A stretch of 56,088 nt of DNA from a bacterium (GTDB taxonomy: Bacteria > Patescibacteriota > Minisyncoccia > UBA6257 > GWB1-50-10): the NCBI GenBank assembly GCA_021812365.1, contig JAKANQ010000003.1:1-56088 (forward strand), written 5' to 3'. Each line of letters starts with the position of its first letter. Within the stretch, counting starts at the first letter, position 1. Under the pieces are notes generated by a model. It was given only the letters and a program-made list of their open reading frames with translations. It was not told the DNA's origin and did no database searches. Positions 35,695 to 39,000 of the stretch are shown here, piece after piece. Position numbers and translations under genes: made by a program.

Positions 35695-35801
35695 TCTATC
35701 CAAAAGCCGCGCAATGAAGCGCGGCTTTTTCATTACTATAAAAAAGCAACGGTAAGTGATGTGTGTATAATTTGTCGAGTGTACATATTATAATGAGGGA
35801 C

Positions 35802-36143
35802 ATGAGATTTGTATTACGCTCGAAAATTCATAAGGCAACAGTGACCGACGCGAACCTCGCGTATATCGGAAGCATCACCATCGATGAAGCGTTGATGGAA
35901 AAAGTGGGGCTTTGGGTGGGGGAAAAGGTTTCGGTAGTCGATAACACGAATGGTGCAAGGCTGGAAACGTACGTCATCAAGGGAGAAAGGGATTCGGGTA
36001 TCATTTGCATGAATGGCGCCGCCGCGCACCTTATAAAGAAAGGGGATGAGATAATCATCATGGGGTTTGAGTTGACCGATGCGCCCATCGAACCCAAGGC
36101 AATATTGGTGGATGGAGAGAATAAGTTCGTGAAGTTTCTTTAA
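35802..36143 (+). CDS. panD: Aspartate 1-decarboxylase
   Basis: KIH.ATVT...Y.GSITID (Gly-Ser cleavage site), [23 protein letters not shown]. Confidence 0.93.
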
Positions 36144-36170
36144 ATAAAACTCCCGCAAAATGCGGGGATT

Positions 36171-36332
36171 CTCTTGTGCCCCCACAGGAAGAGTACTTCC
36201 GTGGTGGCACTGCGTTCGGAAATACGAATATGCTCTCTTGTGCCCCCTCAAGCGGAGTACCGCGTGAGGGCACTGCGTTCGGAAATAAAAAAACACCTAC
36301 TGGCGTTTTTTAATTTCCTCTCTTGTGCCCCC
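36171..36332 (-). repeat. Trailer repeats of tRNA-Lys: two 64-nt-period hairpin units, each ending in a copy of the tRNA 3' end
   Basis: CTCTTGTGCCCC at 36171, 36235 and 36320; GGCACTGCGTTCGGAAATA twice; stems differ but keep pairing. Confidence 0.8.
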
Positions 36333-36397
36333 ACTAGGATTTGAACCTAGAACCAACTGCTTAAGAGGCAGCTGCTCTACCGTTGAGCTATAGGGGC
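36326..36397 (-). tRNA. tRNA-Lys (CTT)
   Basis: GCCCCTA/TGGGGGC acceptor, loop CTCTTAA, TTCAAAT T-loop; no encoded CCA. Confidence 0.95.
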
Positions 36398-36458: not shown

Positions 36459-36639
36459 TGTGCCCCCGGAGGGATTCTCCCGCGCCTCTCACCTCGCCGC
36501 CGCTCGGTTCGGGCTGGGCACCAACTCGCGGCGCATTCTACTGAATGCGCATCGCTCCGTTGTTCGACTCCCTCACACACGCAAATAAATTTGCGTGTTC
36601 GGGCGCACGCGCTGCGCTTATGTGCCCCCGGAGGGATTC
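36459..36639 (-). repeat. 19-bp duplication of the tRNA-Arg 3' end flanking a 143-bp structured insert
   Basis: TGTGCCCCCGGAGGGATTC at 36459-36477 and 36621-36639. Confidence 0.8.
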
Positions 36640-37161: not shown

Positions 37162-38664
37162 ATGAAAACCAAGATTCCCGCTGAAATAGAGGATATTGCG
37201 CGCATTCTGTCCGATGCGGGTTTTGAGGCATATCTTGTGGGCGGTTCCTTGCGGGACATGCTTTTGGGAGTTTCGCCCAAGGATTGGGATATTGCGACGA
37301 ATGCCACACCCGAAGAGACACAGAAACTTTTTGCCACCTATGGCGGACGCACGTTGGAAGACCCCGCTACGGTGTACGAGAACTCATTTGGAACGGTGGG
37401 AATAAAGACCGAATCGAAAGATGAATCGTTGAAGATAGTTGAGGTGACCACGTTCCGCGTGGAGGGCAAGTATACCGATAAGAGGCATCCTGATGAAGTT
37501 CAATTCGCAAAGACGGTCGAGGAGGACTTGAGCCGCAGGGATTTCACCATAAATGCGATTGCCTTCAATCTTGCGAATCACTCGCTTTCCAAATCCCACC
37601 TTGTTGACCCATTCAATGGGATGGATGATCTGCAGAAGAAATCATTGCGTACGGTGGGCGACCCCAACAAGCGATTCGAGGAAGACGCGCTTCGTCTTAT
37701 GCGCGCCGTCCGATTTGCGGCACAGCTTGGTTTTGAGATAGAGCACCAGACCATGAATGCAGTGAAAGAAAACGCCGGACTTTTGGATGTGATCGCGAAG
37801 GAAAGGATTCGCGATGAATTTTCAAAACTTATCATGACTCCGCGCGCCGCGATGGGGATAGTGATGATGGAGGACATGGGACTTTTGAAATTTGTGATTC
37901 CGGAACTCCGCGAGGGTATCGCGTGCGGGCAGAACAAGCATCACATCTATACGGTATTCGACCATAACGTGCGCGCGTTGAATTACACCGCGGAAAAGGA
38001 GTATTCATTCGTGGTTCGCATGGCCTCGCTTCTGCATGATGTGGGAAAGCCGCGCACCAAGGGGGGCGATGGTCCCGATTCGACGTTCTACAACCACGAG
38101 GTGGTAGGCGCTCGGATGGCCGTGAAGATATTGGACAGGTTGAGATTCTCAAAGGAGCATATCGAGAAGATATCGCATCTTGTGCGGTGGCATCTCTTTT
38201 ACTACAACGTGGGCGAGGTGACGGAAGCGGGCGTGCGGCGTTTCTTAAGCCGTGTAGGCTTGGAAAATGTCGATGACCTTTTGAAGGTGCGTGAGGCGGA
38301 TAGAATCGGTTCGGGCGTGCCGAAAGCATTTCCGTACAAGCTGCGCCACTTACTCTTCATGATAGACAAAGTGAAGAACGACCCCATTAGTCCGAAAATG
38401 GTGAAGTTGAACGGTGACGAGTTGATGAAGGAGCTTCAATTAACGCCGAGCAGAAAGGTGGGATATATTCTCTCCATCCTTTTGGAGGATGTGATTCAGG
38501 ATCCTGCGAAGAATGAGAAGGAATATCTCATCGCGCGCGCGAAAGAACTGAATGTGTTTGATGATGTGGAGCTGTCTGCAATGGCTGATAAGGCAAAGGA
38601 GCATGCCGATGAGTTTGAGGAGGGCATTGAGAGGGAGATGAAGAAGAAGCATAAGGTGGCATAA
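37162..38664 (+). CDS. cca: CCA-adding tRNA nucleotidyltransferase with HD domain
   Basis: YLVGGSLRD, DWDIAT, DLSRRDFTINA, RFEEDALRLMRAVRF, ERIRDE, LLHDVGKP, FYNHE. Confidence 0.88.
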   Translation: MKTKIPAEIEDIARILSDAGFEAYLVGGSLRDMLLGVSPKDWDIATNATPEETQKLFATYGGRTLEDPATVYENSFGTVGIKTESKDESLKIVEVTTFRVEGKYTDKRHPDEVQFAKTVEEDLSRRDFTINAIAFNLANHSLSKSHLVDPFNGMDDLQKKSLRTVGDPNKRFEEDALRLMRAVRFAAQLGFEIEHQTMNAVKENAGLLDVIAKERIRDEFSKLIMTPRAAMGIVMMEDMGLLKFVIPELREGIACGQNKHHIYTVFDHNVRALNYTAEKEYSFVVRMASLLHDVGKPRTKGGDGPDSTFYNHEVVGARMAVKILDRLRFSKEHIEKISHLVRWHLFYYNVGEVTEAGVRRFLSRVGLENVDDLLKVREADRIGSGVPKAFPYKLRHLLFMIDKVKNDPISPKMVKLNGDELMKELQLTPSRKVGYILSILLEDVIQDPAKNEKEYLIARAKELNVFDDVELSAMADKAKEHADEFEEGIEREMKKKHKVA

Positions 38665-38713
38665 TATGCTTTTCAGCCCAAAGTAAAAACGCGTCGAAAC
38701 GCGTTTTATCTTG

Positions 38714-38784
38714 TCGGGCTGCTGGGAATCGAACCCAGTCTACACGCACCCGAAGCGTGCGTACTACCGGTATACTACAGCCCG
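38714..38784 (-). tRNA. tRNA-Pro (CGG)
   Basis: CGGGCTG/CAGCCCG acceptor, CACGC-TTCGGGT-GCGTG, TTCGATT T-loop; no encoded CCA. Confidence 0.95.
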
Positions 38785-38790
38785 TAGAGA

Positions 38791-38942
38791 GGAGCAAAAT
38801 GAACAGTAGGTTCATTTTGTCCGAACGACCGGGATGCAACCTTCTGAGGTTGTAGAGCCCGAATGGAGAAGTAAGCTTCTACTTACAGTCCGAAGTGTTT
38901 TGTCCGAATGCCTGAGGAGTAAGCCTTCGCTTATGGTCCAAA
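38791..38942. repeat. Array of four hairpins with GGR...YCC(G/A)AA closure next to the tRNA-Pro 5' end
   Basis: Units 38791-38826, 38831-38863, 38865-38894, 38916-38942; extra TCCGAA at 38903. Confidence 0.65.
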
Positions 38943-39000
38943 GTGCCTATATACTGTATATGAGTTCCAAAAATTAGTAAATAATGGATAATAAATAGAC

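Follow-up and report, generated by a model that had tools for sequence, protein, structure and literature searches.

Integrases that target tRNAs leave a classic trace, namely direct repeats of a tRNA 3' segment with its start near the T-loop. Such att duplications, made by tyrosine integrases, consist of a same-strand duplicate of the tRNA 3' part (reaching from about the T-loop or T-stem into the first bases beyond the tRNA) downstream of the intact tRNA gene, and they can be stacked. The short repeat units described here share these properties. Unlike att duplications, however, they come without an integrase or cargo and lie 63 nt apart, each is equipped with a paired antisense copy as well as an invariant leader and loop, and they are conserved across species and do not decay. 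Another arrangement is known from the tyrT locus of E. coli, where trailer units of 178 bp end in the 3' end of tRNA-Tyr. Here too the repeats stand in tandem in a tRNA trailer, each ending in the tRNA 3' terminus, and in both systems the copy number probably changes by unequal recombination. The units of this study are three times shorter than the tyrT repeats, form hairpins with an antisense arm, have neither CCA nor a reading frame, and show no sequence relation to them. The tyrT repeats yield the stable RNA rtT or code for Tpr; the rtT RNA is mentioned in a preprint (bioRxiv 10.1101/2024.07.17.603846).

tRNA minihelices and t-elements resemble the units in their coaxial helix of about 12 bp, whose 3' strand is that of the acceptor and T stems. 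They differ in that the units have a tetraloop in place of the T-loop and a paired discriminator base. T-elements occur in plant mitochondria; minihelices and t-elements are tRNA-like processing signals on which RNase P, RNase Z, and the CCA-adding enzyme act. REP/REPIN elements and integron attC sites share several traits with the units: they are imperfect palindromes in the intergenic space between convergent genes, their flanks, loops, and bulges are conserved, and their stems covary. In contrast to these elements, the units were found behind tRNA-Lys only in the 0.9 Mb of loci searched, derive from the neighboring tRNA, and lack the signature motifs, and no cognate enzyme was seen. We found no description of the units, or of the larger tRNA-tail cassettes treated below, in the literature. 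The units look like the minimal, tandemly amplified form of an apparently undescribed family that copies tRNA tails.

Two tandem hairpin units behind tRNA-Lys

The window, that is, the whole stretch of DNA that was analyzed (56,088 nucleotides), comes from a Paceibacteria (Patescibacteria) MAG from mine drainage, which represents an uncultured, ultra-small bacterium. Mine-drainage metagenomes hold contigs that are identical over the 1.4 kb compared, as well as close strain variants. On the 3' side of the tRNA-Lys(CUU) gene, two tandem units of 63/64 nt are present at the position given by the first-pass annotation, and its period of about 64 nt was borne out by the repeat search, in which the units were spaced 63-64 nt apart and exact repeats far exceeded chance. 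The features of this region are given below; the tRNA-Lys gene is encoded on the minus strand.

36151..36167, both strands: strong bidirectional terminator for panD (plus) and the tRNA-Lys unit (minus), called by the terminator scan on both strands
36169..36224, minus: unit 1 (distal), from covariance model R1 (79.4 bits) and the fold
36169-36175, minus: trailer copy of unit 1, AAGAGAA
36176-36210, minus: hairpin of unit 1, 35 nt, GUGCC-A-CCAC-GGAAG-UACU-CUUCC-U-GUGG-G-GGCAC
36211-36224, minus: leader of unit 1, as in unit 2
36225..36232, minus: spacer between the units, CAUAUUCG
36233..36287, minus: unit 2 (nearest to the tRNA), from covariance model R1 (75.8 bits) and the fold
36233-36239, minus: trailer copy of unit 2, AAGAGAG
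36240-36273, minus: hairpin of unit 2, 34 nt, GUGCC-CUCA-C-GCGG-UACU-CCGC-U-UGAG-G-GGCAC
36274-36287, minus: leader of unit 2
36281..36318, no strand assigned: AT-rich 17-bp inverted repeat, GGAAAUUAAAAAACGCC-AGUA-GGUGUUUUUUUAUUUCC, from the repeat search and the fold
36318..36325, minus: tRNA-Lys trailer CAAGAGAG, which recurs after each hairpin in the tail-plus-trailer repeat
36326..36397, minus: tRNA-Lys(CUU) without encoded CCA, from ARAGORN and the Rfam tRNA model (74 bits)
36439-36411: promoter-like TTGATT-17-TATAGT ahead of tRNA-Lys
36459..36622, minus: class B cassette behind tRNA-Arg(UCG), from the repeat search and relatives

Each unit is composed of an invariant leader (UAUUUCCGAACGCA), a 14-bp hairpin with an equally invariant UACU loop, and a 3' arm. 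The latter is a copy of the last 16 nt of tRNA-Lys, AUCCUAGUGGGGGCAC (with the first trailer base counted in), and of 7 nt of trailer. On the tRNA strand the gene ends in ...UAGUGGGGGCA, and in the same orientation the units end in GGGGGCAC followed by AAGAGAG or AAGAGAA, which is identical to the 3' end of tRNA-Lys with its trailer; sequence identity thus upholds the proposal that the units end like the tRNA and its flank. Three exact occurrences of the 13-mer CTCTTGTGCCCCC were found (36171, 36235, and 36320), and with up to two mismatches there were five matches where 0.59 would be expected; the two degenerate copies lie at tRNA-Arg and at the tail copy downstream of tRNA-Arg. GGCACTGCGTTCGGAAATA occurs twice in exact form compared with an expectation of 0.01. 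Tandem Repeats Finder gave no report, as expected, because two diverged copies are too few for it.

Folding of the tRNA strand yielded a single strong hairpin for each unit, with -26.3 and -26.1 kcal/mol and z-scores of -4.7 and -3.8. When units 1 and 2 are compared, 9 of the 20 inner-stem positions differ (45%), whereas only one of the 36 positions in the leader, basal stem, loop, and trailer does (Fisher p = 1.8e-4). This contrast indicates that the constant-variable-constant pattern with still-paired stems, which the first-pass annotation had put forward, is real. The basal helix GUGCC/GGCAC takes in the discriminator A and the first trailer C, and the copied "acceptor end" is therefore not free; the equivalent of A73 pairs with a U in the unit hairpin. 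From the loop to the equivalent of C72 the helix counts 5+4+3 = 12 bp with bulges, matching the length of the acceptor stem plus the T stem, and a UACU tetraloop is found where the tRNA has its T-loop and elbow.

Several other identities were considered for the units. No plausible reading frame was found in them. A search of the window with Rfam 15 at E <= 10 gave no family for the units or for the tRNA-Arg cassette and no match of the tRNA model on the units; weak matches to tmRNA_permuted and to snoRNAs were dismissed as chance. A reading as intrinsic terminators was rejected, as no U tract follows either hairpin. The units are also not a CRISPR array, as had been noted on first inspection, since the parts that vary are not unstructured spacers but belong to a single hairpin, as its two self-complementary arms.

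Read along the tRNA strand, the order is tRNA, trailer, AT-rich hairpin, unit 2, spacer, unit 1, and panD terminator. The AT-rich hairpin (36281-36318) stands between tRNA-Lys and its nearest unit, and the 3' half of this repeat, UAUUUCC, recurs in the leader of unit 1. Judged by its predicted structure, it looks like a weak bidirectional terminator; the terminator scan did not call it. The strong terminator at 36151-36167 forms the distal edge of the array, toward which panD (35763-36143) is transcribed, converging on tRNA-Lys. In the promoter scan, no promoter belonging to the units themselves was found, and they are placed behind a hairpin. None of the four tRNAs of the window (at 36325, 36622, 38713, and 40480) encodes CCA, and all their trailers begin with CA(A/U); as the genes lack CCA, the RNase Z/CCA-enzyme pathway is presumably in use.

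A gene for a CCA-adding enzyme lies nearby at 37162-38664. When cca was used as a query, 80 loci with 57-85% identity were obtained in Patescibacteria MAGs (labeled Paceibacterota, Jorgensenbacteria, and Brennerbacteria), and in most of them the cluster of tRNA-Lys(CUU), tRNA-Arg(UCG), tRNA-Pro(CGG), and tRNA-Ala(CGC) is syntenic with cca. A functional link between the units and cca was rejected as coincidental synteny: the nearness of cca reflects the old synteny of the tRNA cluster, given that it is common to 80 relatives, most of which have no units. Among the main reading frames of the window there is no integrase, transposase, reverse transcriptase, Y1 transposase, or integron integrase.

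Units in related genomes and their copy number

The leader-hairpin-trailer unit was found behind tRNA-Lys(CUU) in five related species-level MAGs. There is one copy in L003, three copies are present in L005, one copy and a fused half in L006, and one copy in L069/L098 (L098 is the same contig as L069). From nine units, a covariance model (R1) was built. Its search of 83 sources, comprising 0.9 Mb of loci, returned these units behind tRNA-Lys only. A pattern of the 3' half gave 13 chance matches and one true locus (L098) in metagenome_contigs, and two matches in viral_contigs, both in coding DNA and due to chance. The locus is absent from the metatranscriptome data; three runs from the same study yielded foreign tRNA fragments only.

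Across the relatives, little or no variation is seen in the UACU loop, in the leader core CGARCGC, and in the basal stem, and the unpaired bases C24 and G43-G44 are kept. Four stem pairs (28-35, 21-41, 26-37, and 27-36) are changed on both sides in a compensatory manner, with pair 28-35 occurring as A-U, C-G, or G-C and, in the fused copy of L002, as U-A. In total, pairing is present in 92.7% of the cells compared with 83.2% in shuffles, none of 500 shuffles reached the observed value, and pairing collapses to 36-58% when the register is slid. For strand asymmetry (G-U versus A-C), the unit stems offer two G-U pairs (both in the decaying copy L006b) and one C-A, a tally too sparse to name a strand. 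The stems are thus conserved as paired stems in relatives. The stronger proposal of the first-pass annotation, that selection acts on structure, agrees with the conserved pairing and its compensatory changes; templated correction and recombination between units, as seen in the hybrid units L002_U3 and L003 with their broken pairs, also give double changes, however, and selection is not their sole possible source.

Unit 1 of the window differs by 2 nt from the unit of L003 but by 9 nt from unit 2 beside it, and units b and c of L005 are likewise 2 nt away from the unit of L069. From this likeness across species it follows that two unit types predate the species splits, and both of these paralogous types keep their pairing. 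Among strains and species, the number of units ranges from one to three at orthologous tRNA-Lys loci, a comparison that had been recommended at the outset. Two contigs from one sample carry the arrays U2-U2-U1 (L099) and U3-U2-U1 (L002), respectively; in L002, the middle stem of the hybrid unit U3 is broken, and the AT-rich hairpin differs too. In the Logan contigs of four runs, joints of extra units and a two- to eightfold depth excess over the units were observed. Moreover, a soil run contains a one-unit allele with the joint 36232->36318, where 15 letters are ambiguous, as is expected if two tail-plus-trailer repeats recombine. The data show changes in copy number only; no mini-helix was caught being inserted or excised.

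Two further variants were observed. In rhizosphere metagenomes (X5 and X6) with a near-identical locus, another sequence, ...CACAAGACCACAATGGTTGCCTCGGAACAT (plus strand), replaces the hairpin of unit 1 after its leader (36213). Behind the unit of L003, there is an antisense copy of the tail and a class A core (see below) that breaks off after its first ~13 nt, and unrelated DNA continues from there up to the contig end. In that DNA, no recombinase-like protein was recognized by eye; its reading frames (L003:826-1155, minus strand, and 190-794) were labeled by eye as a Cys-rich zinc-ribbon-like protein of 109 aa, a zinc-ribbon-like membrane protein, and a cold-shock-like protein.

tRNA-tail cassettes of Paceibacteria

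Copies of tRNA 3' ends are not limited to tRNA-Lys. In the 80 related loci, 41 of 261 tRNAs have a copy of their own 3' end downstream on the same strand, and the tRNA types concerned are Pro, Arg, Ala, Lys, Met, Leu, Gly, Val, and Ile. The copies comprise the last 16 nt, usually exactly, and mostly lie 100-210 nt downstream, with a few closer or much further away. Among the 41, a few are no more than partial repeats of a tRNA; the remainder close a structured cassette without a protein. These cassettes are built from a hairpin, an antisense copy of the local T-stem/T-loop (sometimes with the acceptor strand), a conserved core, and the sense tail, whereby both the antisense and the sense arm match the local tRNA. 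In full-size cassettes, the arms enclose a multi-hairpin core of 100-150 nt, of which there are three types (A, B, and C).

The class A core contains GGGAARGGGGUCGGG, a GNRA-capped hairpin with compensatory changes, CCCGUGGCGGA, and a second hairpin, whose loop (CCGC/CCGA) covaries with an upstream GCGG/UCGG. As judged from the sequences, this covarying GCGG/CCGC pairing likely forms a pseudoknot. The class A core is strongly conserved across genera (L048:8195-8335, L003:3842-3980, L007:8802-8940, and 18 more). The window itself contains a class B cassette. Besides two hairpins and a structured core, it has an antisense T-arm (GAGGGAGUCGAAC) as well as the motifs GGUGCCCAGCCCGAA and GAGAGGCGCGGGAGA, and at 36459-36477 it closes with 19 nt that match the tRNA-Arg 3' end exactly. 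The same core is also found behind tRNA-Arg (L007 and L008), tRNA-Lys (L033), and tRNA-Ala (L010). Conversely, one and the same tRNA-Arg or tRNA-Pro site can carry class A, class B, class C, or nothing across close relatives. Rfam 15 gave no family for the cassettes (six relatives at gathering score and one class A cassette at E <= 10), and a pattern of the class A core had no match in viral_contigs. The tRNA-tail cassettes appear to be an undescribed, lineage-specific family in Paceibacteria. In the window, an array of four hairpins lies upstream of tRNA-Pro at 38785-38945; by eye, it has no class A, B, or C core.

Mini-helices and cassettes have a common layout (tRNA, trailer, hairpin, antisense arm, core if present, and sense arm with trailer). 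Like the cassettes, the units are located 3' of the tRNA on the same strand, after a trailer and a hairpin, and the antisense tail copy at their start pairs with the sense tail copy at their end. They differ from the cassettes in lacking the multi-hairpin core, the arms being joined by the UACU tetraloop alone, in being tandemly amplified, and in being limited to tRNA-Lys(CUU) in one narrow clade. Both kinds of element also occur together. Behind tRNA-Lys, L069/L098 carries a stack of two class C cassettes followed by a terminator and then a mini-helix, and the last two tail copies share a 9-nt trailer. L006 and L002 have fusions, with two different junctions, in which a class A cassette continues directly from its sense arm into a mini-helix loop and the adjoining 3' arm. 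These fused forms would fit independent deletions across the inverted repeat that is made up of a tail copy and the next antisense arm. Taken together, the shared architecture and the fused forms suggest that mini-helices and cassettes are homologous.

Origin and upkeep of the units

Since they have the same architecture as the cassettes and occur in stacked and fused forms in relatives, we read the units as core-less members of this family. The best explanation, to which we attach about an even chance of being correct, is that the units are core-less tRNA-tail cassettes that were made at the DNA level by insertion or recombination and whose copy number is set by unequal recombination. This comes close to the "repeated insertion scars" that the first-pass annotation had listed as an alternative. 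The first unit would have arisen by DNA-level insertion or recombination at the 3' end of tRNA-Lys, and its core may have been deleted across the inverted arms or may have been absent from the start. Each unit duplicates the tRNA tail with 7-9 nt of trailer, and unequal recombination or slippage at the 15-nt tail-plus-trailer repeats would then alter the size of the array. Selection on a folded trailer (as RNA or as DNA) might maintain the hairpin, as might templated correction in the palindrome, or the two together. A leaky AT-rich hairpin would let transcription of tRNA-Lys read through into the units, which would then form its trailer between the putative weak terminator and the strong one. 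We know of no enzyme or mechanism by which a target would be written in both antisense and sense copies.

The invariant leader and loop next to the hypervariable yet paired position 28-35 have the look of a functional RNA or protein site, and the word "remnant" may undersell the units. In a further, rather unlikely reading, the hairpins would be the minimal, arms-only state of a novel guide-directed insertion system, in which the antisense arm pairs with the tRNA 3' end (of the gene or the transcript) and directs the placement of a protein-less, structured cassette, the sense arm is the duplicated target, arrays record successive events, and the leader and UACU loop are recognition features for the enzyme.

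Alternatively, the units could act at the RNA level as mimics of the tRNA "top half", an idea already voiced for them as acceptor-stem mimics. RNase P and RNase Z would cleave the read-through trailer RNA hairpin by hairpin and the products would perhaps be tagged with CCA, giving small decoy or regulatory RNAs, or the hairpins would punctuate or stabilize transcript ends in a t-element-like way. RNase P, RNase Z, and CCA-adding enzymes recognize the acceptor/T helix together with the elbow (PMC4810234), and by analogy elbow-measuring enzymes could in principle accept the 12-bp helix of the units. This helix equals acceptor stem plus T stem and uses the tRNA's own 3' strand, leader and loop stay conserved across species with covarying stems, CCA is missing from the tRNA genes so that the RNase Z/CCA-enzyme pathway is presumably used, and on the tRNA strand the units sit between a putative weak and a strong terminator. 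The idea is thus supported in part, by the 12-bp geometry, but the mimicry is incomplete: the units have a UACU tetraloop without T-loop or elbow, pairing extends over the discriminator and the base after it, and the Rfam tRNA model does not match them at E <= 10. Furthermore, units occur at a single tRNA within a narrow clade, in contrast to the synteny of cca and the tRNA cluster, which extends over 80 relatives; pairs are broken in the hybrid units L002_U3 and L003; and the units have a hairpin ahead of them and no promoter of their own. We thus consider such a role unlikely. The same constant flank, constant loop, and unpaired C24 and G43-G44 beside covarying stems would also be the pattern of attC or REP sequences, and in-place inversions of tRNAs hint at recombination at inverted tail copies. 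The units could accordingly be DNA-level protein-binding palindromes, folded as single strands for recombination or transposition (as in REP/RAYT systems, IS200/IS605 ends, or integron attC-like sites) with flank, loop, and bulges serving for recognition. Against this, units were found behind tRNA-Lys only in the 0.9 Mb of loci, their sequence contains neither attC core sites (GTTRRRY/RYYYAAC) nor a GTAG-type REP head, and no Y1 transposase or integron integrase is present among the reading frames of the window, which makes this explanation very unlikely in our view.

Two explanations dispense with a cassette family. Integrase-bearing elements (a prophage or island) might have integrated serially at the 3' end of tRNA-Lys and been lost imprecisely, leaving attR-like fragments. 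The duplicated segment does start near the T-loop and takes in trailer bases; the spacing of 63 nt without any remnant of cargo, the matched antisense arm with the same leader and loop in five species (unlike random decay), the lack of an integrase in the window, and the viral contig scan, which with its two chance coding matches revealed no element carrying the motif, argue against it, and we hold att-site scars to be improbable. Plain local tandem duplication of the trailer is given a similarly small chance. Here, the arrays would be tyrT-like, with an accidental hairpin kept by quasi-palindrome correction and with neither a family nor a function behind it. Intrastrand template switching in quasi-palindrome mutagenesis can yield double changes in stems, so that those of the units would be explicable; the copy number changes via the 15-nt repeats, and E. 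coli tyrT sets a precedent for trailer repeats that end in copies of a tRNA 3' end. Such duplication does not, however, explain the tail echoes at 41 tRNAs of relatives, mostly with antisense and sense arms around conserved cores, nor the forms fused to class A cassettes, nor an invariant leader and loop beside 45% divergence of the inner stem.

If the core-less cassette reading is true, the tRNA-tail echoes of Patescibacteria are products of a recurrent, protein-less, and target-matched process and not random debris of integration, and the simplest product of that tail-copying process can persist and amplify alone. The unit of ~56 nt would be a small and tractable substrate for finding the enzyme that writes or reads the arms, and equally one on which the tRNA-processing enzymes of organisms without encoded CCA can be tested. 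In annotation, the units should not be labeled as tRNA pseudogenes, terminators, or CRISPR-like arrays.

The units also break metagenome assemblies at tRNA loci, and the contigs L002, L069, and L098 end in repeats. At L002:4620-4778, in a co-occurring strain, an inverted class A cassette takes the place of the tRNA body and meets the tail of tRNA-Lys, with its trailer and the units, at the T-loop. This join could reflect a genuine inversion or replacement, or, as L002 is the end of a metagenome contig, it could be chimeric through assembly. Changes of strand were moreover observed for whole tRNA genes: among close relatives, single genes flip strand and keep their place (38713-38784 in the window; L003-L011), with counts of 39 minus and 4 plus for Lys-CUU and of 53 plus and 14 minus for Pro-CGG. 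Inverted tail copies could mediate such flips. The tRNA-Pro of the window has the minority orientation.
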